Below, piece by piece: positions 1 through 10,972 of a stretch of DNA of 64,000 bases. Made by a program: the position numbers and the translations under genes. Origin of the DNA: a virus (lineage: Duplodnaviria; Caudoviricetes). Where the stretch lies: positions 1-64,000 of the IMG/VR virus record IMGVR_UViG_3300037692_000137; one strand, 5' to 3'. The notes below the pieces were generated by a model that searched no databases, was not told the origin of the DNA, and saw only the letters and a list, made by a program, of their open reading frames with translations. Within the stretch, counting starts at the first letter, position 1. Every line of letters begins with the position of its first letter.

Positions 1-177
1 GACGAGCAATCGGATGATCCAGTTCCTGCCCCGAAAGGGGTGGGTTACATGGTAAATGTAGCATCGAATAAAAATGGAGTAGGCTATCAACCGTGGATAC
101 ACATTGACGGTTGGAGTGAAGCTGTTGTGGCATGGCTACGTGAGTATGAATCATGTGGCTTTACCAAAGAAACATAG
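1..177 (+). CDS. 3' end of a hypothetical protein (truncated by window start)
   Basis: Frame 1 is open from base 1 (DEQSDDPVPAPKGVGYMV...FTKET) to TAG at 175-177, followed by TAA. Confidence 0.6.
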   Translation, partial: DEQSDDPVPAPKGVGYMVNVASNKNGVGYQPWIHIDGWSEAVVAWLREYESCGFTKET

Positions 178-184
178 TAAAGGT

Positions 185-450
185 CTTCGTTCCTTTACTA
201 GTTCTCGCACACTAGGCAGATAATAAAGGGTCAATCGCGATCCTCGATTTATCTATAGTGAGAACAAAAGCAAACAAACGAGTGGGATGGTGTGGTGGGA
301 TTACGTGATTAGGATAGTACCTGGCCTGCGTGCCAGGTCAATCTTGGTTACTACGCCGGGTAGTAGTTGCTTTGTGTACAAATTATGGACAGTGTATACT
401 TCCCATAGTACTCTGCACATCTCTAATTACTACCTGGCATTTTTTATTTT
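185..450 (+). ncRNA. candidate structured RNA or long 3' UTR (three long hairpins ending in a U-tract)
   Basis: Stems are 201-208/258-265, 319-325/332-338 and 355-369/424-438. The G-U wobbles work only on the + strand. A T-run follows at 440-450. Confidence 0.4.
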
Positions 451-464
451 AAATTAAATTTTTA

Positions 465-492
465 TTGACAATAAAATATATCTGAGTAGAAT
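465..492 (+). promoter_or_regulatory. sigma70-type promoter
   Basis: TTGACA (465-470), 16 nt spacer, TAGAAT (487-492), with an AT-rich UP-like region upstream. Confidence 0.7.
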
Positions 493-579
493 ATTACGTA
501 TCATTAATATGCAAAGCACACCTTACTTCACATATAAACGGTACAATAACAAGTTACTACGTAAGTCGTAGCTCAGATT

Positions 580-685
580 GGGGAATTCACGGTTTATTCG
601 CAATTAACGGGAATGAAGTAATCCTTCGCCTTATGGAGGCGGGCCTGGCCGTGTCCGTTATAGAATTCCCCGCTTTTCTTTTTTT
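580..685 (+). ncRNA. candidate structured leader or small RNA (multi-stem junction) with terminator-like U-tract
   Basis: GGGGAATTC (580-588) pairs with GAATTCCCC (663-671) and encloses two hairpins. GCTTTTCTTTTTTT follows. A 20-codon uORF at 509-571 precedes it. Confidence 0.4.
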
Positions 686-712
686 AAAAAACAACCCTGG
701 AGATAATTACTT

Positions 713-1033
713 ATGAGTGTGGGCAACGACTTTGATGCTGAATCTTTTATGTTTGGGCTGGGTTTTGGCTACGAGCTATCTCGCGGAGAAGACGAGTTAG
801 ACCTCGATGCCTATGACCCAGAAACTGATGATGTTCTTGAAATGTCTACTGCTGATAGAGAAGCTTATGTAGAAGATCTTGTTGAAATGACAGCTAACAT
901 GGGGGCAGGTATCTCAAGTGCATCAACAGAGCCAGAAAAAATACGGTTTTCAGATAACTTAATAGATCGAAAAAAACCTTTTGAAAGTTTTGTAGATCGC
1001 TACATTCAGGACCTTAATGATGGCAGAAGATAA
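713..1033 (+). CDS. acidic hypothetical protein
   Basis: 106 aa ORF with upstream GGAG RBS; overlaps the next gene. Confidence 0.7.
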   Translation: MSVGNDFDAESFMFGLGFGYELSRGEDELDLDAYDPETDDVLEMSTADREAYVEDLVEMTANMGAGISSASTEPEKIRFSDNLIDRKKPFESFVDRYIQDLNDGRR

Positions 1034-1799
1034 CAGAAAAATGCTTAGGCTGGTTGCTAAACCTGGCTCAAAAGCAAGAAGAGACATTACTGAAGCAACT
1101 GGTATAAGCAGATACACCGGTAATAAAAATAATACTGTTGCGGCTATCATAAACTACGGCCTATGCGGTGATCATCTAAGCGCTTTTCTAAAAAAGTATC
1201 CAGCGGCGGCAGGGTTGCCCATGTTAAACAAAAACATAGGTTGTCCTAAATATACAGCAGTTAAAGCTGCGGAGACAAAGGGTATTATCGTACCTGAAAC
1301 ACGTTTAAGCCTTTCAAAAGAACATAAGCTTGAAGAGTGGATAATCAAAAAACAACACTCTATCGGCGGTATTGGTATAAAGTATGCCCCAAGCAAAGAT
1401 CAGCATGCGGGCCATTACTACCAAAGATTTGTAAAAAATAGAAAATATGAACTACGCGTTCACGCATTCACTTGGACAAATTGCACAGTTCAAAAACGTC
1501 TAGGAAAATCAGACGTTATAGCGTGGAACTTCAAAAACGGTGGGCATTTTATAAGTGTACAGGCGCCTGAGAAGTATAAAATATTCAGAGAGGCTATACA
1601 AGTAGCATTAAAAGTTCTTGAAATAAGAGCCATGGCTTTTGGTGCCGTGGATTTTATTGTGGATGCTGAGGGTAAGTTATATTTTATTGAGGTGAATTCG
1701 TCACCCGGTTTTACTGACTTTAGCAAGCACATATATGTTGATGCTTTTATAGCATTGGCAAAATGTAGTAAAGCACAGATACTCGGTCTGTGCAAATAA
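1017..1799 (+). CDS. ATP-grasp (RimK-like) ligase
   Basis: Motifs IIKK..S.GG.GI, YYQRFV...ELRVH, WNF.NGG and FGAVDFIVD...YFIEVNSSPG. Confidence 0.85.
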   Translation: MMAEDNRKMLRLVAKPGSKARRDITEATGISRYTGNKNNTVAAIINYGLCGDHLSAFLKKYPAAAGLPMLNKNIGCPKYTAVKAAETKGIIVPETRLSLSKEHKLEEWIIKKQHSIGGIGIKYAPSKDQHAGHYYQRFVKNRKYELRVHAFTWTNCTVQKRLGKSDVIAWNFKNGGHFISVQAPEKYKIFREAIQVALKVLEIRAMAFGAVDFIVDAEGKLYFIEVNSSPGFTDFSKHIYVDAFIALAKCSKAQILGLCK

Positions 1800-2049
1800 A
1801 TGTGTGCTTTGGTACGCATTGGTAAAAGACTTGCTGCATCGTATGTTTATACTTATAACTTAGGTCTAGAAACATTGATTACATATATAGATACTTATTA
1901 ATTTCTAAAACTTGGGTATTTGTTAGGTGTAAACATTAGCAGAGAGTTGTTTTACTGAGGACGAGTGGGAAGATGGGTGGGTTGTCACCCTGGATAAGCA
2001 TGGCAGGTATTGGTCAGCTCTTAGCAAAGTAGTCTATACGAAACACTAA
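1800..2049 (+). pseudogene. possible degraded small gene
   Basis: ATG at 1800, in-frame TAA at 1899-1901, then a one-base frameshift in the T-run 1950-1953 that would restore a plausible tail (ELFTEDEWEDGWVVTLDKHGRYW). Confidence 0.3.
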
Positions 2050-2121
2050 GACCACCAGTAACCCCCATATTTGAAAGGGTGGCTGTTTTTTCTCACAAAA
2101 GTTAAGACAATAGGAAATAAA

Positions 2122-2649
2122 ATGAACAAAGCTTTAATTATAATTGACATGCTTAATGACTTCATCATGGAAAACGGCGCTTTATACTGTGGCAAGGCAG
2201 CTTCGGATATAGTAGCACGGATACAGGATAAATTGGAGTTGGCAAGAAAGAATAACGAAGTAGTCGTCTTTCTGTGCGATGCCCATAAACCGTATGACAA
2301 AGAATTTCAACGTTTTCCAAAACATGCTGTAATAAATACAGTGGGCGCCCAAATAATTGATAGCCTTTCCCCGGTGGAAAGAGGCCGCGAGTATGTTATT
2401 AAGAAAACGCGTTATAGTGGTTTCTATAATACCAATTTGAATATGGTATTAAAATTAAATAATATAACACATGCGGAAGTTGTTGGTGTTTGTACTAACA
2501 TCTGTGTTATGGAAACGGTAGGAGGACTATCCAACCGTGACATTACTACTTTTATTGATAGGTCGGCTGTTGCTGATTTTGACAAGGTTGCTGCAGACGC
2601 CGCTCTCCTGCGTATGCAGTGTATATACGGAACAGTCGTGGTTCCGTAG
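2122..2649 (+). CDS. pncA: nicotinamidase (isochorismatase-like cysteine hydrolase)
   Basis: Motifs IIIDMLNDF, DAH, PKHAV, KKTRYSGF and GVCTNICV (catalytic Asp-Lys-Cys). The start is set at ATG 2122 after AGGAAA. NAD operon context. Confidence 0.85.
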   Translation: MNKALIIIDMLNDFIMENGALYCGKAASDIVARIQDKLELARKNNEVVVFLCDAHKPYDKEFQRFPKHAVINTVGAQIIDSLSPVERGREYVIKKTRYSGFYNTNLNMVLKLNNITHAEVVGVCTNICVMETVGGLSNRDITTFIDRSAVADFDKVAADAALLRMQCIYGTVVVP

Positions 2650-2662
2650 TTGTTTCTCCAAT

Positions 2663-2694
2663 GATGGGCGGGGTGGGAGACTGCCCTGCTCATC
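2663..2694 (+). promoter_or_regulatory. GC-rich intercistronic hairpin (attenuator or mRNA stability element)
   Basis: GATGGGCGGG pairs with CCTGCTCATC between pncA and the radical SAM gene; no long U-tract. Confidence 0.45.
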
Positions 2695-2710
2695 TATTAC
2701 GAGGACCATA

Positions 2711-3571
2711 ATGAAAAAGATAAGCACTTTATCTGTTGTAGCTGGGACTAATAACTGTAACGCAAAGTGCCCATTTTGCGTAGCCAAAATGACTCCGGTT
2801 CAAGGACTTATAGACAATATAAATCAACGTAACTTGGACATCGCCTGTCGCTTGGCTGAAAAATCCGGCGCTGTAACCGCACTAATAACTGGTAAAGGTG
2901 AACCTACCTTATACCCAGATACCATCTCGTTCTACCTCACACACCTCTCCAAGTACTTTCCAATCCTTGAATTACAAACCAACGGTTTGATACTCCCAGA
3001 CGATAAATATAATGAGTTTTTAAAAAGTTGGTATGATCTTGGCCTTACGACAATATCCTTGTCAGTTGTACACTATGAGGATGTGCGTAATAAAGAGGTT
3101 TATACTGGTAATAAAGACTACATTAATTTATCAGCATTAATAAATAAGTTGCATAAATATGGTTTTAGTGTTAGACTACGCGTTATAGCCATAAAAGGTT
3201 ATGTAGATTCTCCACTTGAAATAGCACGTATGATTAAGTTTGCTAAGGATAATAATGTCGCACAATTAACCATAAGGCCCATGGTGGCTTATAGGTCTAC
3301 CAGTAACAACAAAGTTCTAACCTGGGTTTTAATCCACGAGATTGGGCCTAACTGGGAACCTATTGTTACCAACACACTAAGTAAAATAAAAAATACATTC
3401 TTAATGGACCTTGTTCACGGCGGTAAAGTGTATGACATCTCTGGCCAGAATGTGTGTTTTAGCAACTGTTTAACTTTGCACCCTAACGACGTAGAATTAC
3501 GTCAATTAATATATTTCCCTGACGGCAAGCTAACCTACGATTGGAGATACAAAGGAGCACGAATACTATGA
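2711..3571 (+). CDS. radical SAM protein of unknown specificity
   Basis: CNAKCPFC (CxxxCxxC), ITGKGEPTLY and ELQTNG. The start is reassigned to ATG 2711 after a GAGG RBS. The stop overlaps the pncB start (ATGA). Confidence 0.85.
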   Translation: MKKISTLSVVAGTNNCNAKCPFCVAKMTPVQGLIDNINQRNLDIACRLAEKSGAVTALITGKGEPTLYPDTISFYLTHLSKYFPILELQTNGLILPDDKYNEFLKSWYDLGLTTISLSVVHYEDVRNKEVYTGNKDYINLSALINKLHKYGFSVRLRVIAIKGYVDSPLEIARMIKFAKDNNVAQLTIRPMVAYRSTSNNKVLTWVLIHEIGPNWEPIVTNTLSKIKNTFLMDLVHGGKVYDISGQNVCFSNCLTLHPNDVELRQLIYFPDGKLTYDWRYKGARIL

Positions 3572-4872
3572 ATATGAAGCCGATAATAGTAAGTCTATTA
3601 GATAATGATGCGTATACCTTTTATATGTGTCAATTTATACTTAGTAGATTTAAAGGCACTATTGCTAAGTATAAATATAAATGTCGTAATGGTAATGGTT
3701 TTCCGGCAGGCCTTACAGACGAGAAAAAATACTTGTTTGTGTCAATGATGAATAGCCAGATAGACTCTTTATGTGAATTAAAGTTCAACGAGGCTGAAAT
3801 CGCATTTTTACGTGGCACGGGCAAATTTAAGGAGGAATTCTTAGACTTTCTAAGGACGCTTACTTTGGACAGATCACATATCAAATGTACTTGTAGGGGT
3901 GGCGGCTTATACATTGAAATAGAAGGACCCATTGAGAAAGTAATATGGTATGAAACACCGATACTTGCTATAAATAGTGAATTGTATTATCGTTATTATG
4001 ATGTCGCAATAGAAAAGTATGTTGGAAGCTATCAGGATAACTTTAAACTAGAACACAGATTTACATTAACAAATAGTGAGCGGCACACAAATAGTTTAAA
4101 CGTGGCTAGGGAAAAGCTACAGGTTAAAATTAATGAGATACGCGAAGCATCGCTACCAGGTTTTAATATTGTAGACTTTGGTACAAGAAGACGGGCTACT
4201 TTAGGATGGCAAGACGAGGTACTAACCACCCTTAAAAAGGAAGTACCGTCTGTTTTAAAAGGTACCTCTAATTGTTACTTAGCTATGAAGCATGACTTAC
4301 CAATTGTAGGGACGATGGCACATCAGCTGTTTCAAATGTATCAACAAATGGCCGGCGCTACTGATTGTCAAACCGTACTACTATCAGAATGGCAGAGAGA
4401 GTACGGCGACCAACTTCTTATTGCTTTAAGTGATATATTTGGTTTTGAGGCATTTCTAGCAGACTTTGTCAGCTTTGCTCAAGCTTACACTGGTACTAGA
4501 CATGATAGTGCAAACCCATACATTTGGTGCGAAAAGCTGCTTGCTTTTTACAAAAAGTTAAATATTGTTGCAGGTAAAAAGACGGCCGTATTTAGTGATG
4601 GTTTAACTGTGACTACAGCTTTACAACTTTACGCTACATTCTATAAAAGAATAAACGTGGCCATTGCTATAGGCACTAATCTAACAAACGATACAGACGT
4701 CGGAGCACTACAAATTGTAATTAAACTTGTGGAGTTTAACCACGGCCCTGTAGCAAAGGTAAGTGACTCTCCAGGAAAAGGTATGTGTGAAAGTTACGAT
4801 TATGAAGAATACATAAACTACATTGTAGCTCAAAAAGAAAGGAGATACAAACAATGGCTAGAAAACAAATAG
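3568..4872 (+). CDS. pncB: nicotinate phosphoribosyltransferase
   Basis: Motifs SLLDNDAY, DFGTRRR, GTSN, GTMAH, RHDS, FSDGL, IGTNLTND and KVSDSPGK. Confidence 0.93.
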   Translation: MNMKPIIVSLLDNDAYTFYMCQFILSRFKGTIAKYKYKCRNGNGFPAGLTDEKKYLFVSMMNSQIDSLCELKFNEAEIAFLRGTGKFKEEFLDFLRTLTLDRSHIKCTCRGGGLYIEIEGPIEKVIWYETPILAINSELYYRYYDVAIEKYVGSYQDNFKLEHRFTLTNSERHTNSLNVAREKLQVKINEIREASLPGFNIVDFGTRRRATLGWQDEVLTTLKKEVPSVLKGTSNCYLAMKHDLPIVGTMAHQLFQMYQQMAGATDCQTVLLSEWQREYGDQLLIALSDIFGFEAFLADFVSFAQAYTGTRHDSANPYIWCEKLLAFYKKLNIVAGKKTAVFSDGLTVTTALQLYATFYKRINVAIAIGTNLTNDTDVGALQIVIKLVEFNHGPVAKVSDSPGKGMCESYDYEEYINYIVAQKERRYKQWLENK

Positions 4873-5477
4873 CCCTCTTAGGCGGCGCGTTCGATCCTGT
4901 AACATTAGGCCATGTATTAGTGGCTAAAATGTTATTGCGTGTAGCAAACTTTGACAATGTGTGGTTTCTGCCGAGCTATCATTCATGGAATGATAAAAAT
5001 ATGCAGAGCCCTGAGCATCGTTTAAACATGTTGAAGTTAACCTGCGAAGACATCCATGATAGACGGCTAAATGTATGTTCTTATGAAATTAAAAACAAGA
5101 TAGTAGCCCCAACAGCCACCGTCTTGGATCGTTTAACACCTTATCTGGAGGCCGATTTTTCATTTTGTATAGGCACAGATCAAGCAGATGATATTCAAAC
5201 CTGGCATGAATGGGAGCGCTTAATAAGCCAGTACTCATTTGTAGTCATAGAGCGTCCTGGTAATCCATATGTGCCTGGTAGTTGGTATACTTCCTCACGA
5301 CACCAGTTTATTAATAATACCTCATGTATTAGCAGTGTTTCCTCTACAGATGTTAGGAGATCAATTGCTGCCGACGGGGTATCCTATGATGTAACACAGT
5401 CAGTAATGAACTATATTAAAGATAATAAACTTTATATCTCTAATGAAGGAGCTAAGAAAATAAATGTTGGAAATTAA
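4854..5477 (+). CDS. nadD: nicotinate-nucleotide adenylyltransferase
   Basis: Motifs GGAFDPVTLGH, R..ML, IGTDQ and SSTDVR. Confidence 0.92.
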   Translation: MARKQIALLGGAFDPVTLGHVLVAKMLLRVANFDNVWFLPSYHSWNDKNMQSPEHRLNMLKLTCEDIHDRRLNVCSYEIKNKIVAPTATVLDRLTPYLEADFSFCIGTDQADDIQTWHEWERLISQYSFVVIERPGNPYVPGSWYTSSRHQFINNTSCISSVSSTDVRRSIAADGVSYDVTQSVMNYIKDNKLYISNEGAKKINVGN

Positions 5478-6297
5478 TCAAAATTACCCTGTTATGTATA
5501 CTAACATTCTGGCCGAAAGTATGGAATATGTACGTCGAAGTCGGCTGGAATCTTTAGTCGTAGGTGTATCAGGTGGGATAGATAGTGCGCTGGTTGCCGC
5601 ATTGGCGAGAATCGTTTGTGATGAGACCGGTACCACGCTTATCGGGCGTAGTATACCCATTGTCACAAACAGAAGAAGTGAAGTGCTACGCGCCAGGGCT
5701 ATTGGCAAATGCTTCTGTGATGAGTTTAAAGAAACCCACATGGATGACGCATATAATAACTTATATAAGAGTATAGCGGACGAGGACAGACATGATGTTA
5801 ACACAAAAGCTGAGAAAATACGCCGCGGCAATATAAAAGCACGTATGCGGATGATACAGCTTTATGACTTGGCACACCTTAACAACGGCCTTGTCCTCTC
5901 AACCGATAACTACACAGAACTTTTACTTGGTTTTTGGACCATGCATGGTGATGTGGGTGACTATGGGATGATACAGAGTCTGTGGAAAACTGAGGTGTAC
6001 GGCTTGTCTGATTGGCTCTGTAAAAAGTATACCATGAATGGTTATACAGACAAAGCAGAGGCCCTAAATGCCTGTATTTCCGCAGTGCCCACCGACGGGT
6101 TGGGGGTAACTGAGAGTGACTTTGATCAACTTGGGTTACGTCACTACACTGACATCGATAATGTGCTACTCAAGTACATTACAGAAGGTGTGGGTGGTGA
6201 CGATGAGAACCCAGTCGTGCTTCGTTATGAGGGCACACATCACAAGAGAAACTCCCCTGTAAATATTCCACGTAATAGGATTCTGGGGATAATGTAA
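5464..6297 (+). CDS. nadE: NH3-dependent NAD+ synthetase
   Basis: Motifs GVSGGIDSA, GNIKARMRM, TDNYTE..LGFWTMHGD, KTEVY and PTDGL. No glutaminase domain. Confidence 0.93.
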   Translation: MLEINQNYPVMYTNILAESMEYVRRSRLESLVVGVSGGIDSALVAALARIVCDETGTTLIGRSIPIVTNRRSEVLRARAIGKCFCDEFKETHMDDAYNNLYKSIADEDRHDVNTKAEKIRRGNIKARMRMIQLYDLAHLNNGLVLSTDNYTELLLGFWTMHGDVGDYGMIQSLWKTEVYGLSDWLCKKYTMNGYTDKAEALNACISAVPTDGLGVTESDFDQLGLRHYTDIDNVLLKYITEGVGGDDENPVVLRYEGTHHKRNSPVNIPRNRILGIM

Positions 6298-6325
6298 AGC
6301 AAGTTAACAGTCAAGAGGAGTTACT

Positions 6326-7576
6326 ATGGGTTCTTTCAATGTTGCATGTTCAATTAGTAATGTAAGCATTGGCGCTGGCCAACGTGTAGCATTTATTCCG
6401 TTGGTAGCAAAGCGTTATTTGTCTAAAGATGATAAGCTACCAATACCCAATCAGATGCTCATTGAGCCCGACTCATTATTAACTCCTTTTTGTCTGCCAA
6501 TCTTTGGTAAATACAATGACTATGGTTCAGTAGAACACATAGAAAAGGACGCAAATACCGCGGCCATTGAAGCATACATAGGTATGCCCATAGACTCCTT
6601 TGTTGACTGTGTTACTTGTGGTAGAGAGCCCCATGATTATTTCGGCGATTTATTTAAACATTTTGTCATCAATGGGACTCGTTGGGTAGTAAGAGACTAC
6701 CGAGTTCATTTTGATGGTAAGTACCTGGAACAAGTGGGTTTTAAACGACTTGACATACCGGGAGAAGCCTGGTATGATTATATTTATGAGGACTTTCCTT
6801 ACCTGGTTAAACTCATAGCTGGCTATGATCAACGACCTATTTATCCTAATAACGGACATCGTATTATGGGTATAGGCTTTGAAATATACGATCATACTGG
6901 AAGTGTGGTTTATACGGGCAGTCATTACGACGCAAAGTCGGCACTACCCAAAGCATTCTTAGCGCTTACTGGCTACTTTATTTATGTTAATAAAGAAGAC
7001 CAAGAAAAAGTTAAGTTACTTAAAAATATGTCTGGTATGTTTATACATAGCGACATCTGGGACTATATGATAAACGTACAAGCACATCAGCATGAACAAA
7101 TTAGTACATCTTTTGATGAGCTTAGTCAAAAGATAACAGCTTATGATAAAGGTGAGTATGATTACTATATGCATACTATGCCTTCTGTTGAAAAACAACT
7201 CAAAGAACATAACCTGTTGTGCGCAATACTTGAAAAGGATGAAGAATTTATACCACGCCAACCTGGAAGCGCACTTAAAATATCTCAACCATTCTTTGGA
7301 GATCCTATAACGTCGGTTATTACTGAAAACTATTTTCATAGATTCTTTAACAATTGGCCGTACTTTGCTCCAGTCTATCGCGCGGCAATAAAGGATGGCA
7401 GTATAAAGGAGCACTTCATGAATTATTGTAGCTTTTATTGGGAGATGTATTCCACCAATAGGTTTTTCTTTCCCGGCATGCATGGTGAGCAGTGTGGTAA
7501 CACAGAAGCGTCGTTGCGTCTTGCAAGACAAACAGTTAAACTTTTAGAAGAAAGACAAACGGAGGAAAATGAATAA
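6326..7576 (+). CDS. hypothetical protein
   Basis: 416 aa ORF with GAGGAG RBS; no recognised domain. Confidence 0.8.
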   Translation: MGSFNVACSISNVSIGAGQRVAFIPLVAKRYLSKDDKLPIPNQMLIEPDSLLTPFCLPIFGKYNDYGSVEHIEKDANTAAIEAYIGMPIDSFVDCVTCGREPHDYFGDLFKHFVINGTRWVVRDYRVHFDGKYLEQVGFKRLDIPGEAWYDYIYEDFPYLVKLIAGYDQRPIYPNNGHRIMGIGFEIYDHTGSVVYTGSHYDAKSALPKAFLALTGYFIYVNKEDQEKVKLLKNMSGMFIHSDIWDYMINVQAHQHEQISTSFDELSQKITAYDKGEYDYYMHTMPSVEKQLKEHNLLCAILEKDEEFIPRQPGSALKISQPFFGDPITSVITENYFHRFFNNWPYFAPVYRAAIKDGSIKEHFMNYCSFYWEMYSTNRFFFPGMHGEQCGNTEASLRLARQTVKLLEERQTEENE

Positions 7577-7733
7577 ATCAAATAAGCCGTCTAACTGGAC
7601 TAATTGTAAAAAATGCACCTGCCCAAAGTGCTCCAGCAGTAGAACCCAGAATAGAGAAAACGACGCTGGTGATTTTGAACACAGGTGCTTAGAGTGTAAA
7701 AATACCTGGGTAGTTGACGGGGTTGATTATTAA
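7569..7733 (+). CDS. small zinc-ribbon protein
   Basis: Own translation, 54 aa: MNKSNK...CKKCTCPKCSS...HRCLECKNTW. GGAGG RBS. Confidence 0.6.
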   Translation: MNKSNKPSNWTNCKKCTCPKCSSSRTQNRENDAGDFEHRCLECKNTWVVDGVDY

Positions 7734-7739
7734 TGTTTC

Positions 7740-8222
7740 TTGCTAAGGGTGGGGGTTTTATTTATGACAACATTTAAAAGTATTAAACTGAAAGTCCTGC
7801 CCTTACCAACATTCTTTTTATTTTATAAAAAATTGTTGGGTGAGCAAACCACACTAACTGAATGTGTTGAGCAGTTTTTCGGTTATGTACACGAGATCAG
7901 ACCCATAATCGGGAGAGAAGGCCATTATTATGATAGAGTAAATAACTTTGCTTGGGTCGAGTTTGATAAAAAGGCCTTTGTGGATTTAACCCCAGAAAGC
8001 TTTGTCTACGAATTGAAGATGTTAAACCACACACCGTTGCCGGCAAAAGTAAAACAGGCAATTAAAGTATTGAAACATTACAACGCATGCCCTACTGATC
8101 TTAAAGAGCTTATCTACACAGATGAGTGTTTCTTAATGGGACAACAGGCGCATAAACATGCTATACTGGCCAGCATAAGGGTACAAAAACGTTTTAGAGA
8201 GGAGTTGACAAACGAGCTATGA
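7740..8222 (+). CDS. hypothetical protein
   Basis: ORF coupled to the next gene by an ATGA overlap. The true start may be ATG 7764. Confidence 0.7.
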   Translation: MLRVGVLFMTTFKSIKLKVLPLPTFFLFYKKLLGEQTTLTECVEQFFGYVHEIRPIIGREGHYYDRVNNFAWVEFDKKAFVDLTPESFVYELKMLNHTPLPAKVKQAIKVLKHYNACPTDLKELIYTDECFLMGQQAHKHAILASIRVQKRFREELTNEL

Positions 8223-8854
8223 AGTATTATAAGTATCCAAGAACGCCACATCTCCCTTGGAGCCCCGGCAAAACAAATGACGACAAAGTATTAAAAGATA
8301 CCTCCCATTTTCTTGGAAAAGAAATAGTCATGTCATTGAAGATGGATGGCGAGGCAACAACTTTATATAGTAATCACATGCATGCCAGATCTATTGATTC
8401 TAAGGACCATCCATCAAGACACTGGTTAAAAGCCCTTCATAGTGCCATTAGAGGCTTAATACCCGCCTGCCATAGGGTATGTGGTGAGAACCTCTACGCA
8501 CGTCACAGCATATCTTACAATGTGTTATTGAGCTATTTCCAGGTGTACTCCATATGGGATGAGAAGAATGAATGTCTACCTTGGGATATAACCACTGAGA
8601 AATGCAATCATATGGGTTTAATTACAGTGCCTGTTGTTTGGAGAGGTACAATAAATGATGATCTTAGCTCCATTTTACAGGCACTATTTGAACCTTACGA
8701 AAAAGAGCATGAAGGGTACGTAATACGTACTGCCGACTCTTTTCCATATGATGAATTTGGTACACACATTGCTAAGTATGTAAGAAAAAATCATGTACAG
8801 ACCGACGAACACTGGTTGAATCAATCAGTAGTTAAGAACAAACTTAAACTGTGA
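8219..8854 (+). CDS. ATP-dependent RNA ligase family protein
   Basis: Motifs KYPRTPHLPWSPG, KMDG (motif I), GENLYARHSI, EGYVIR and AKYVR. Confidence 0.85.
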   Translation: MKYYKYPRTPHLPWSPGKTNDDKVLKDTSHFLGKEIVMSLKMDGEATTLYSNHMHARSIDSKDHPSRHWLKALHSAIRGLIPACHRVCGENLYARHSISYNVLLSYFQVYSIWDEKNECLPWDITTEKCNHMGLITVPVVWRGTINDDLSSILQALFEPYEKEHEGYVIRTADSFPYDEFGTHIAKYVRKNHVQTDEHWLNQSVVKNKLKL

Positions 8855-8866
8855 GGCACTGCTAAC

Positions 8867-9064
8867 ATGTCCAGCAAAAAGCTTAATGTGGTTGTGTACA
8901 CACTACTATACGGTGACTTACATGAGGCACCACTCAGTGTACTTGGTGAACACTGTCCAAGCGACGAAGTATACCGATCTTTAGATGAGGAGCAGAAGCT
9001 ACGACTACATGCCGCGGCGACGCTACAAAAACGTTTTGATGAAGTAATAACAAAAAATTATTAA
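8867..9064 (+). CDS. hypothetical protein
   Basis: 65 aa ORF in a co-oriented run. Confidence 0.55.
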   Translation: MSSKKLNVVVYTLLYGDLHEAPLSVLGEHCPSDEVYRSLDEEQKLRLHAAATLQKRFDEVITKNY

Positions 9065-9084
9065 AATAGGAAAGAAACATTAAT

Positions 9085-9243
9085 ATGAGGCCAAGAAAAG
9101 GAAGCCCGGCTGAAAAGTTAGGTATAAAATTTACTGGTAATCCAGATGCATTAGATCGGCCGAAGAGAAGGGTTACATATGACATACTTGAAAGGCCCGG
9201 AAAATATATTGTAGGACCGTTGTCCGATAAAGGAGATAAGTAG
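9085..9243 (+). CDS. small hypothetical protein
   Basis: Own translation, 52 aa (MRPRKGSPAEKLG...), filling the gap, with an upstream AGGAAAG. Confidence 0.5.
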   Translation: MRPRKGSPAEKLGIKFTGNPDALDRPKRRVTYDILERPGKYIVGPLSDKGDK

Positions 9244-9245
9244 CC

Positions 9246-9458
9246 ATGCCAATTTATGAGTACCTATGTGAATCTTGTGGCAAAAGATTCGAAGCAACAA
9301 GAAGTATTAAAGAGTCCAGTACTATGATAGGTTGTCCTAGCTGTGATGGTATAGGTAAAAAGATACCTTCTTTATCAACGTTTCACCTTAAGGGTGGAGG
9401 CTGGTATAAGGATTCTTATTCTGGGAAGAGTTGTAGTCTTGATAAAAAGAAAGGGTGA
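9246..9458 (+). CDS. FmdB-family zinc-ribbon putative regulator
   Basis: MPIYEYLCESCG...CPSC...STFHLKGGGWY..Y signature. Confidence 0.85.
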   Translation: MPIYEYLCESCGKRFEATRSIKESSTMIGCPSCDGIGKKIPSLSTFHLKGGGWYKDSYSGKSCSLDKKKG

Positions 9459-9499
9459 GGTTAATTTCTATTCAAGAGTTGCTTGAAAGGAGGCGGTGT

Positions 9500-9628
9500 A
9501 TGTGTACAGTAATAGTAGCTTGGATCAATGCCAAGTACAACGCAGGTTACAACTATTTGTTTATTGGTACGGTGATTATAGATATCAGTATATCTCAAGT
9601 CATCATAGCCGTTTTAGATAATCTATAA
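9500..9628 (+). CDS. small hydrophobic protein
   Basis: Own translation, 42 aa, with a strong AAAGGAGG RBS. Confidence 0.45.
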   Translation: MCTVIVAWINAKYNAGYNYLFIGTVIIDISISQVIIAVLDNL

Positions 9629-9663
9629 GAATTAAAAGTATTATACCCTCATTTTATAAAGAG

Positions 9664-9693
9664 TAACTAGGGGGGCCGCAAACTCCCTAGTTA
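9664..9693. terminator. hairpin at the convergence of the + and - transcription units
   Basis: TAACTAGGGGG pairs with CTCCCTAGTTA between convergent genes. Confidence 0.6.
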
Positions 9694-9701
9694 TCCATCC
9701 T

Positions 9702-9890
9702 CTAATTAGCTAGTAGCCTAGCTTTCTTATGTCTACAATTCTTCTTTACGTAATCAATAGAACACAATTGATACAAAGAACACTCTGTTGACTGTGTGTC
9801 CAACCGGTTTTCACAGTTCTGGCAAACTTCTTCCCGGATTTTCCGCAGGTCATCCACTAGCTTACTAGAGCCTCTGAAGCTTGTGGCCAA
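9702..9890 (-). CDS. small Cys-rich hypothetical protein
   Basis: CQNC...C.LYQLC...C. The true start is probably the internal GTG (VDDLRK). Confidence 0.5.
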   Translation of the reverse strand: MATSFRGSSKLVDDLRKIREEVCQNCENRLDTQSTECSLYQLCSIDYVKKNCRHKKARLLAN

Positions 9891-10122
9891 TTCCTACCAC
9901 ACTCAATCCTAGTCCCGCATCCATCACCGCCTTGGCTGCCGTATGGCTACCCATCAAGTCAACTACTACACTTCCGATAATCAAGAAACCGCCTGTTATT
10001 GTTTTCCAGTTTGTTCCAAGTAGTTTTTCCAACCAAGTTGTTACATTCACTTTAACTTCATTTAGGTCATTAAGTACCATAATACTTGTACCTCCATAGT
10101 AATTAGTATTAGTTGTAATCAT
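9865..10122 (-). CDS. holin-like small membrane protein
   Basis: NWKTITGG motif followed by two hydrophobic segments, at the end of the late module. The likely start is MVLND after GGAGG. Confidence 0.5.
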   Translation of the reverse strand: MITTNTNYYGGTSIMVLNDLNEVKVNVTTWLEKLLGTNWKTITGGFLIIGSVVVDLMGSHTAAKAVMDAGLGLSVVGIGHKLQRL

Positions 10123-10219
10123 TAGTTGTACTACCTTTTACATATTACATATTTTTTTATTTGCCCGCCGCCGCCTCTAATGAACCGGCCTAAATAAGTG
10201 TCATGGGGATCGCCCGTAT

Positions 10220-10972
10220 TTACGATATACAACTTAAAATGTTCGGTGTTCCTTCTGTTATTTCTATTGTATGTTCAAAGTGGGCAGAGTAGTTTCCTGA
10301 AGTGGCAGATATTGTCCAGCCATTAGCCTCTCTAAATACCCTACAATCAGGACCTTCTATGAGCATAGGTTCTATGGCTAGCACCATACCTGCTTTTAGT
10401 ATAGCACCTTTATTGCTTTTTCCATAATTTGGAATCTGTGGGCGTTCATGAAGCTCTTTACCTACTGCGTGGCCAACGAATTCACGCACCACTGAGTAGC
10501 CTTTACTTTCAGCATGCGTTTGTATGGCATTCGATATATCTCCTACACGATTACCAGCTAGTGCTTTTTCAATCCCTTTGTATAGGCATTCTTTGGTTGT
10601 GTCTATTAACCGTTGATTTTGTTTTGTTACAGCACCAACAGGCAGTGTAACTGCAGCATCACCATAAAAGTAGTCTTTAAGTATACCAAAATCTACACTA
10701 AGTATGTCACCGTCTTTAAGTATGTTCTTAGACGGAAAACCGTGCACCACATGGTTATTGACAGAGGCACAAATGGCGTATGGGTAGCCTTTGTAGTTTT
10801 TAAATCCGGCAAGGGCGTTACTGGTAGTAGCTAGCTCATTAGCCACCTGCTCTAAATAATCTGTTGTTATACCAGGAACCACCAAAGTTTTTAAATTACT
10901 TAGGAAATTGGCTACTATTTTACAACTAATTTTTATTTTCTCTATTTGTGTAGGTGTTTTTAATATTATCAT
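10220..10972 (-). CDS. map: type I methionine aminopeptidase
   Basis: Motifs CASVN..VVHGFP, GDILSVDFG, GDAAVT, GHAVG..LHE, AIEPML and SAHFEHT. Confidence 0.95.
   Translation of the reverse strand: MIILKTPTQIEKIKISCKIVANFLSNLKTLVVPGITTDYLEQVANELATTSNALAGFKNYKGYPYAICASVNNHVVHGFPSKNILKDGDILSVDFGILKDYFYGDAAVTLPVGAVTKQNQRLIDTTKECLYKGIEKALAGNRVGDISNAIQTHAESKGYSVVREFVGHAVGKELHERPQIPNYGKSNKGAILKAGMVLAIEPMLIEGPDCRVFREANGWTISATSGNYSAHFEHTIEITEGTPNILSCIS

Follow-up and report, generated by a model that had tools for sequence, protein, structure and literature searches.

Why would a large phage carry the genes for a whole pathway of nicotinamide adenine dinucleotide (NAD+) salvage, and is this pathway at work for the virus in the infected cell? 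The question is raised by the IMG/VR virus record IMGVR_UViG_3300037692_000137 (Duplodnaviria; Caudoviricetes), a linear sequence of 234,228 bp with a CheckV completeness of 89%. Its first 64 kb (positions 1 to 64,000, named the window hereafter) carry the genes pncA, pncB, nadD and nadE between positions 2122 and 6297. We consider, with a probability of roughly 0.7 and on the basis of sequence comparisons, that they belong to a working NAD+ salvage operon which is maintained by the phage and would sustain NAD+ in infected cells. By family and motif assignment the four gene products compose the complete deamidating route from nicotinamide through nicotinate, nicotinate mononucleotide (NaMN) and nicotinate adenine dinucleotide (NaAD) to NAD+, as the first-pass annotation of this DNA had proposed. 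PncA would hydrolyse nicotinamide to nicotinate and NH3, PncB would form NaMN from nicotinate and host phosphoribosyl pyrophosphate (PRPP), NadD would convert NaMN and ATP to NaAD, and NadE would yield NAD+ from NaAD, ATP and NH3. By stoichiometry, the NH3 that PncA would release equals the NH3 that NadE would use, which does not in itself speak for channelling. Expressed during infection, the operon would keep or restore the NAD+ pool starting from nicotinamide, the product of NAD+-cleaving enzymes. The likeliest benefit would be resistance when NAD+ is depleted in the infected cell, also where defence effectors of the SIR2 or TIR type deplete it.

The four genes are all encoded by the + strand: pncA (nicotinamidase) at 2122-2649 (175 aa), pncB (nicotinate phosphoribosyltransferase) at 3568-4872 (434 aa), nadD (nicotinate-mononucleotide adenylyltransferase) at 4854-5477 (207 aa) and nadE (NH3-dependent NAD+ synthetase) at 5464-6297 (277 aa). 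The first-pass annotation had described them as a tightly coupled four-gene operon with intact catalytic motifs. Genes, positions and motifs are confirmed, but the operon is larger. It also contains a radical SAM gene (2711-3571, + strand, 286 aa; Pfam Radical_SAM, E-value 1e-12), whose product has a CX3CX2C motif (CNAKCPFC), and a gene of 416 codons directly 3′ of nadE (6326-7576, + strand) which is related to the DUF8385 family. At least five genes, and probably six, make up the operon. There is an overlap of 4 nt (ATGA) between the radical SAM gene and pncB, of 19 nt between pncB and nadD and of 14 nt between nadD and nadE, while gaps of 61 nt and 28 nt separate pncA from the radical SAM gene and nadE from the 416-codon gene, respectively. 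At 2626-2648, overlapping the pncA stop codon, there is an 8-bp hairpin with a T-rich tail 3′ of it. Given this hairpin, pncA may be partly uncoupled from the genes 3′ of it. The count of terminator-like sites in the operon region is not clearly higher than in shuffled sequences.

PncA matches the Pfam Isochorismatase family (PF00857) with an E-value of 1e-32 and 114 bits for a cut-off of 27. Its closest solved relative is 5ZN8 (E 2.5e-25), which is PncA of Bacillus subtilis (PMC13398362), and further solved nicotinamidases match it too. The Asp-Lys-Cys triad of nicotinamidases (PMC13398362) corresponds to D9, K95 and C124 in the alignment with 5ZN8 and is kept in six phage orthologues (five or six orthologues were aligned per gene to assess motif conservation). 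The metal ligands D53, H55 and H68, arranged as Asp-x-His...His, are kept in 6/6 phage orthologues. Such ligands, whose equivalents in Borrelia burgdorferi PncA are Asp52, His54 and His73, mark nicotinamidases off from other amidases with an isochorismatase fold. PncB scores above the cut-offs of both NF003704 (405.5 bits vs 379) and TIGR01514 (323.9 vs 269.55). It aligns with Pseudomonas aeruginosa PncB (1YIR; E 1.8e-65) over the DFGTRRR (203-209) and GTMAH (H252) motifs, which are kept in the phage orthologues. The His of the GTxAH motif is the residue autophosphorylated in these enzymes.

NadD is recognized by TIGR00482 (141.3 bits, cut-off 112.45) and aligns with Bacillus anthracis NadD (3HFJ) with an E-value of 8e-19. 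Its motifs GGAFDPVTLGH and VSSTDVR follow the pattern GGAFDPvTlGH and SSTxVR found in the clade of related phages defined below. NadE exceeds the cut-off of TIGR00552 (119.9 bits vs 63.65). It matches the NH3-dependent synthetases 3P52 (E 6e-18) and 2E18, and its SGGIDS P-loop (residues 36-41) aligns with that of 3P52 and is kept in the phage orthologues. Within its 277 aa NadE has the NAD_synthase domain (PF02540) only, the CN_hydrolase glutaminase domain being absent; we assign NadE to the NH3-dependent type because NAD_synthase is its sole domain.

The DNA around the operon is that of a phage, in agreement with the first-pass annotation. Besides its origin from an IMG/VR record, a PHROG scan of the large open reading frames (ORFs) identified phage-type genes coding DNA polymerase, ribonucleotide reductase, DNA methyltransferase, an ATP-dependent protease and tail-fibre-like proteins; a nucleotide-sugar epimerase, which uses NAD(P), is also found among the phage genes. 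The GC content at 2-6 kb (0.38-0.40) does not stand out from the values of 0.33-0.42 found over the remainder of the window. Near-identical DNA was not found among GenBank phages. A search of sequencing runs identified one sediment metagenome run that contains almost the entire locus and is probably the source of the phage. About 20 further runs, mostly groundwater metagenomes, each have a small share of the locus (~0.06), low-share matches that do not confirm a habitat.

The same block of genes, from an ATP-grasp gene through pncA, the radical SAM gene, pncB, nadD, nadE and the 416-codon gene to an RNA ligase gene, is found in the same order in four other phage lineages, designated L002, L006, L098 and L099. 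Together with the window they make five lineages obtained from different samples. L002 (73-91% protein identity to the window) is present in several samples with contigs of up to 236,830 bp. L006 is a 157-kb contig and contigs of L098 reach 307,814 bp. Protein identity between the window and the four lineages ranges from 38 to 91%. In the comparison of the window with L002, the ratio of non-synonymous to synonymous substitution rates (dN/dS) is 0.06-0.19 in all genes with an estimable dS. Among 4,297 PncB homologues, identity is 53-74% inside this clade and at most 45% for all others; named bacterial PncB proteins (Variovorax and others) are ~41% identical to that of the window. The pncB clade is monophyletic with support of 100/99 in a maximum-likelihood tree. 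Phage pncB genes are placed in at least four separate positions of this tree, and we therefore conclude that phages acquired the route several times.

These data bear directly on whether the cluster could be host DNA brought onto the contig by mis-assembly, as a prophage flank or by recent capture, and devoid of an adaptive role. There are precedents for such confusion: some GenBank "phage" records with pncB (Moraxella phage Mcat17, Acinetobacter phage MD-2021a) resemble bacterial flanks or bins of metagenome-assembled genomes (MAGs). A recent and non-conserved insertion of host DNA had also been named in the first-pass annotation as a finding that would overturn the idea of a phage operon. 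What is found is a block conserved in the same phage context across five lineages from different samples, under purifying selection (dN/dS as above), with cellular homologues that are all at most 45% identical and with a GC content that matches the phage DNA around it. The conservation evidence already contradicts an origin of the cluster as stray host DNA, which we regard as most improbable.

Several observations weigh against the operon working as proposed. PncA scores below every NCBIfam cut-off. The model of the E. coli-type enzyme (PRK11609) gives 29.8 bits for a cut-off of 174, the best NCBIfam matches, RutB and BiuH, are likewise far under their cut-offs, and no model for the short Bacillus-type form is passed; the substrate assignment of PncA rests on motifs and nearest solved relatives because no NCBIfam cut-off is reached. 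NadD has a Thr for the first His of the HxGH motif (T-x-G-H). This Thr is fixed in all five members of the clade, and the position is a His in solved bacterial NadD. The Thr form of the motif is known from eukaryotic nicotinamide mononucleotide adenylyltransferase (NMNAT) and from phosphopantetheine adenylyltransferase (PPAT). The pathway has four steps and consumes host PRPP and at least two ATP, so that it is slower and costlier than the experimentally proven NAD+ reconstitution pathways of phages (NARP1-3; see below). The NAD+ produced would still be cleavable by an active NADase, and the pathway leaves the ADP-ribose half of the cleaved molecule unused. The sequencing-run search for the locus retrieved no RNA run containing it. 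Finally, in L099 (L099:5865-7700) nadE matches residues 1-244 only and the next gene matches only from residue 94. This suggests a deletion in L099 that spans the junction of the two genes and removed the 3′ end of nadE together with the 5′ part of its neighbour; the final step to NAD+ may have been lost in this lineage. That NaMN and NaAD escape cleavage by NADases is speculation. Enzyme activity, expression in infection and a benefit against host defence are what we infer from genes whose identity, conservation under purifying selection, intact motifs and phage context the sequences show.

The strongest competing explanation is a general auxiliary metabolic module that supplies NAD+ for a long and costly replication or complements a host poor in nicotinamide salvage or NAD synthesis, without a specific part for NADases. 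The enzymes are ordinary housekeeping ones encoded in an ordinary bacterial order, and the phage has other enzymes that use NAD(P), such as the nucleotide-sugar epimerase. The contig of a close relative carries a Patescibacteria MAG label in NCBI. Patescibacteria are poor in cofactor synthesis. The probable sediment origin of the phage and its low-share matches in groundwater runs also count in favour of this explanation. The label may, on the other side, come from wrong binning, since a phage of 234 kb that carries multihaem cytochromes is unlikely to infect Patescibacteria. Phage and host NAD pathways were found to complement each other in the study of NAD-jumbo phages (PMC11662467), which also favours a metabolic purpose. 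Against it, a pathway that begins with nicotinamide, and not with nicotinate, suggests that products of NAD+ cleavage are recycled, and a macrodomain protein in the record (see below) as well as RNA-repair genes beside the operon in the window and its relatives suggest a neighbourhood related to conflict. We hold the purely metabolic explanation possible though doubtful. A counter-defence role would be plausible. If the operon works as a phage-maintained NAD+ salvage pathway, as we favour, we give a general role in metabolism and a specific one in counter-defence about the same likelihood.

Other genes of the record that could touch NAD+ metabolism were searched by family scans. The first-pass annotation had noted the lack of a PRPP synthetase in the window, and this is true for the entire 234,228-bp record. 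Scans of the whole record gave no second nicotinate phosphoribosyltransferase (NAPRTase) or nicotinamide phosphoribosyltransferase (Nampt), and no LigA, NUDIX, Tpt1/KptA or SIR2 match. A membrane ORF of 83 aa at 232,219-232,470 of the record (L111:1465-1716 in our locus numbering) scores 23.4 bits with PF04973 PnuC for a cut-off of 27.3. It resembles the first third of PnuC and also YgjV, and is perhaps a vitamin transporter of half size, unless the match arose by chance. About 0.8 kb 3′ of it a divergent macrodomain protein of 155 aa is encoded (233,245-233,712; L111:2491-2958), which matches solved macrodomains with E-values from 1.8e-10 to 4e-3. By this homology the phage has at least one predicted ADP-ribose-handling protein. 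In the case of a circularly permuted genome, its gene would stand near the NAD operon. The PF01661 Macro scan of the record gave no match: the macrodomain protein was missed by it and found by chance. Because the Macro scan missed this divergent protein, negative family scans of the record need careful reading. Since no PRPP synthetase (Prs), no second NAPRTase or Nampt and only a sub-threshold PnuC-like ORF were detected, the operon appears to be the only recognizable NAD route of the phage.

Three further elements of the transcription unit are conserved: the radical SAM gene, the DUF8385-related gene and a leader RNA 5′ of pncA. The radical SAM proteins form a well-conserved family of ~290 residues with 946 homologues. 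Their database labels are uninformative, being either "radical SAM protein" or automatic MoaA and PFL-activase calls. In the AlphaFold model of the window protein (predicted local distance difference test, pLDDT, 87.8) the fold is close to that of MoaA (TM-score 0.72) and of a viperin-like enzyme (TM-score 0.68); MoaA and viperin, the nearest folds, both act on nucleoside triphosphates. The 4-nt overlap between the radical SAM gene and pncB is kept in four of the five lineages (window, L006, L098 and L099). Considering full-length members of the family, pncB or nadE is found within 10 kb in 9/45 viral loci, which correspond to seven distinct phages. Loci L037, L043, L052, L053, L061 and L027 are among those with such a neighbour. 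The radical SAM gene is directly beside NAD genes in L037, L043 and L053, whose pncB genes belong to clades other than that of the window. Given that pncB is rare in phages (14/50,697 GenBank phage records), this pairing is well above chance, for loci that are not fully independent.

The 416-codon gene is directly 3′ of nadE in all five lineages, and the two genes overlap by 14 nt in L006 and L098. It has a dN/dS of 0.17. The protein has 50 homologues, all unnamed, many of which are labelled DUF8385 in the precomputed Pfam column of the database; the window protein itself has no Pfam match. Residues M1, G2, C8, S11 and S14 of its amino-terminus are invariant. Its structure was modelled with a pLDDT of 84.5, the ESM Atlas score being only 0.76. 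Fold searches with this model (pdb, pdb_via_wide and afdb_clusters) gave no Foldseek match in the PDB, unnamed AFDB clusters only, and a best VIA-align Z of 4.8 that is confined to one small subdomain.

The company of these two genes could mean that the pathway is an extended one, in which the radical SAM protein and/or the DUF8385 protein act on NaMN, NaAD, NAD+, ATP or ADP-ribose. The four salvage enzymes would feed this step, which could yield a modified nucleotide or process an NAD-derived immune signal. The radical SAM/pncB overlap in 4/5 lineages, the radical SAM family adjoining pncB or nadE in phages of other pncB clades (L037, L043, L053, L052), the nucleoside triphosphate substrates of the nearest folds, the overlap of the DUF8385 gene with nadE and the purifying selection on both genes are consistent with it. 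These points are set against 36/45 viral loci of the radical SAM family without a NAD gene within 10 kb, and against the NAD gene clusters of the uncultured contigs L087 and L100, of Bacillus phage G and of Sinorhizobium phage Phosso, which are without this radical SAM family. The neighbouring RNA-repair genes suggest another context for the radical SAM protein, RNA or tRNA modification. We consider an extended pathway distinctly improbable, and a four-enzyme salvage operon with conserved additional genes the better description of the locus.

The leader RNA is found at 1938-2095 (+ strand, ~160 nt), with conserved copies in L002 (L002:4350-4506), L098 (L098:6324-6508) and L099 (L099:2328-2493). 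Its near-invariant G-rich core GACGAGTGGGAAGATGGGTGGGTTG has 25 nt that are identical in these four phages, in which the flanking proteins are just 53-68% identical. The core is followed by an 8-bp long-range helix that closes a variable domain of ~95 nt and then by a U-run ending ~30 nt 5′ of the pncA start. RNAalifold applied to the four sequences identified compensatory changes in 4/8 pairs of the long helix. The L098 leader has an additional hairpin in its 5′ stem loop. Allowing up to three mismatches, the leader is single copy in the 234-kb record, which rules out a repeated phage promoter motif. Rfam searches of the leader and of positions 1-10,500 yielded nothing better than an E-value of 0.7, all far below gathering scores. 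Scans for the leader retrieved from the viral collection only the L002-type phage, and from metagenomes the L002-type phage plus two unrelated GC-rich chance matches (L107 and L108). The covariance model (R1) built from the leader found its four training copies only and none in L006 or 25 other phage loci. The folding energy of the single sequence is no better than that of shuffles (z 0.10). The four sequences leave three interpretations of the leader: a cis-regulatory attenuator of riboswitch-like type, a small RNA, or a combination of an operator with the terminator of the ATP-grasp gene. A bolder proposal joins the extras of the operon: the radical SAM and/or DUF8385 proteins would act on a nucleotide of the pathway, as a phage-specific branch or a protection, and the leader would be a riboswitch-like attenuator that turns the operon on when NAD+, nicotinamide, ADP-ribose or NaMN signals depletion. 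We regard this combination as unlikely.

The ATP-grasp gene (RimK/DdlA-like) directly 5′ of the leader is located at 1017-1799 (+ strand, 260 aa; Pfam ATP-grasp families with E-values from 5e-8 to 8e-7) and is syntenic in all five lineages; we do not claim it as a member of the pathway. Further upstream, L006 and L098 carry genes for a CCA-adding enzyme and a Ro/TROVE protein, to which L006 adds genes for a sigma factor and a RuvB-like protein. An RNA ligase gene is found downstream of the operon in the window (8219-8854, + strand, 211 aa) and in all relatives. Judged by these predicted functions, the NAD operon would stand inside an RNA-repair-like neighbourhood.

The same gene set is found in other phages. 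In Bacillus phage G (NC_023719) an isochorismatase hydrolase (gp275), a nicotinate phosphoribosyltransferase (gp277), a nicotinate-nucleotide adenylyltransferase (gp281) and a NAD synthetase (gp283) are encoded within ~6 kb. This cluster (gp273-gp283) also includes a NUDIX gene and a KptA-like RNA 2′-phosphotransferase (gp280). Phage G, a cultured jumbo phage, has a co-directional cluster with the order pncA, pncB, nadD, nadE as in the window, and PncA and NadE of the two phages are 36% and 30% identical, respectively. It differs from the window by genes that do not overlap and are interleaved with small ORFs, one NUDIX and one KptA/Tpt1 gene, by the absence of this radical SAM family and of the DUF8385 gene, and by its Gram-positive host. 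The phage G pncB was not recovered from GenBank phages when pncB of the window was the query. In Phosso, genes annotated as NAD synthetase, NAPRTase, MutT-like hydrolase, adenylyltransferase and isochorismatase-like hydrolase are clustered. L087 has pncA, two ORFs, pncB, nadD and nadE, while L100 has pncA-pncB-nadE. The clusters of L087, L100, phage G and Phosso are independent ones in unrelated phages. A 218-kb contig (L010/L011) carries a gene of the same radical SAM family, pncB and a glutamine-dependent NAD synthetase of 687 aa (CN_hydrolase plus NAD_synthase). It also has a cytidylyltransferase-like gene and genes for a 307-aa NUDIX protein and a PP2C phosphatase, and is without pncA.

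How does the operon compare with known phage NAD+ pathways? Two-enzyme phage NAD pathways overcome NAD-depleting defences (10.1101/2024.02.11.579819; PMC13464706). The first-pass annotation had correctly given NARP1 as Adps plus Namat and NARP2 as Nampt plus Nmnat (10.1101/2024.02.11.579819) and had put forward the deamidating set as a candidate third and new pathway. This last claim does not hold: a third pathway, NARP3 (PnuC plus NadR), was published in August 2026 (PMC13464706), phage G and Phosso are annotated with the set, and clusters for the route via NaMN and NaAD were described in 2024 (PMC11662467). A complete phage-encoded route from an NADase product to NAD+, the property that defines the NARP class, is present in the window, with PRPP and ATP provided by the host. 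NARP2, as in Vibrio phage KVP40, is similar to the window in that NAD+ is made from nicotinamide and host PRPP by classical salvage chemistry (10.1101/2024.02.11.579819). It differs in having two steps via nicotinamide mononucleotide (NMN), with no deamidation and re-amidation, and in having been demonstrated experimentally to overcome NAD-depleting defence. The window does not encode NARP2: there is no Nampt, and the sole gene of the PF04095 NAPRTase family passes PncB models. NARP1 and NARP3 are phage operons that yield NAD+, as that of the window would, and are proven against SIR2- or TIR-type NAD+ depletion. NARP1 recycles ADP-ribose via ADP-ribose pyrophosphate (ADPR-PP), and no Prs-like gene (Pribosyltran_N) is found in the record. 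NARP3 imports nicotinamide riboside; the record has only the sub-threshold PnuC-like ORF, with no NadR-like gene adjoining it. The only Pfam cytidylyltransferase-like gene among the ORFs scanned is nadD, a statement made without a NadR-specific search. Two comparative surveys of phage NAD systems cover the NadV/NadM/NadR route only, and our literature search found no paper testing the deamidating route, or escape of NaMN and NaAD from NADases, against a NAD-depleting defence.

NAD+ depletion is among the commonest anti-phage strategies of bacteria, and since 2024 proof has been given for three pathways by which phages rebuild NAD+. Of the classical ways from nicotinamide to NAD+, the one that remains is the deamidating route with its four steps, which is seen in many large phages; the clade described here has a compact and strongly conserved version of it that could be cloned whole. 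The radical SAM family, the DUF8385 gene coupled to nadE and the covarying leader could each reveal new nucleotide chemistry or a NAD-linked regulatory RNA. Should these extras prove to be passengers without a relation to the pathway, the locus adds one more ordinary example to a class already known.

The closest described class is that of the "NAD-jumbo phages" defined in 2024 in the journal Microbiome, whose pncB-nadD-nadE clusters (e.g., in Kuafu_71) compose a complete Preiss-Handler pathway; the bioinformatic study that defined them also mentions phage pncA, and its authors propose both NAD+ supply for phage needs and counter-defence (PMC11662467). Like the window, these phages have genomes larger than 200 kb and a clustered complete route via NaMN and NaAD (PMC11662467). 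The window phage has the defining features of the class, a genome above 200 kb (234,228 bp) and all enzymes of one pathway (pncB, nadD and nadE, plus pncA). The NAD-jumbo clusters differ in having three genes and starting at nicotinate, and they belong to gut phages with Bacteroidota hosts (PMC11662467). The paper mentions no leader RNA and no gene of the radical SAM type, the words "radical SAM" being found 0 times in its text (PMC11662467). The phage NAD-salvage module is thus an ordinary one of a known class. Its architecture is fixed in this clade and has not been described before: a radical SAM gene lies inside the operon, a DUF8385 gene is coupled to it and a conserved leader RNA precedes it. 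The four families, their chemistry and their catalytic residues are the same as in the pyridine nucleotide cycle and Preiss-Handler salvage of bacteria. Bacterial nadD and nadE have essential housekeeping functions and as a rule lie apart, whereas in the window all four genes are brought together in one phage operon, whose proteins form a deep clade of their own (at most 45% identity to others for PncB).

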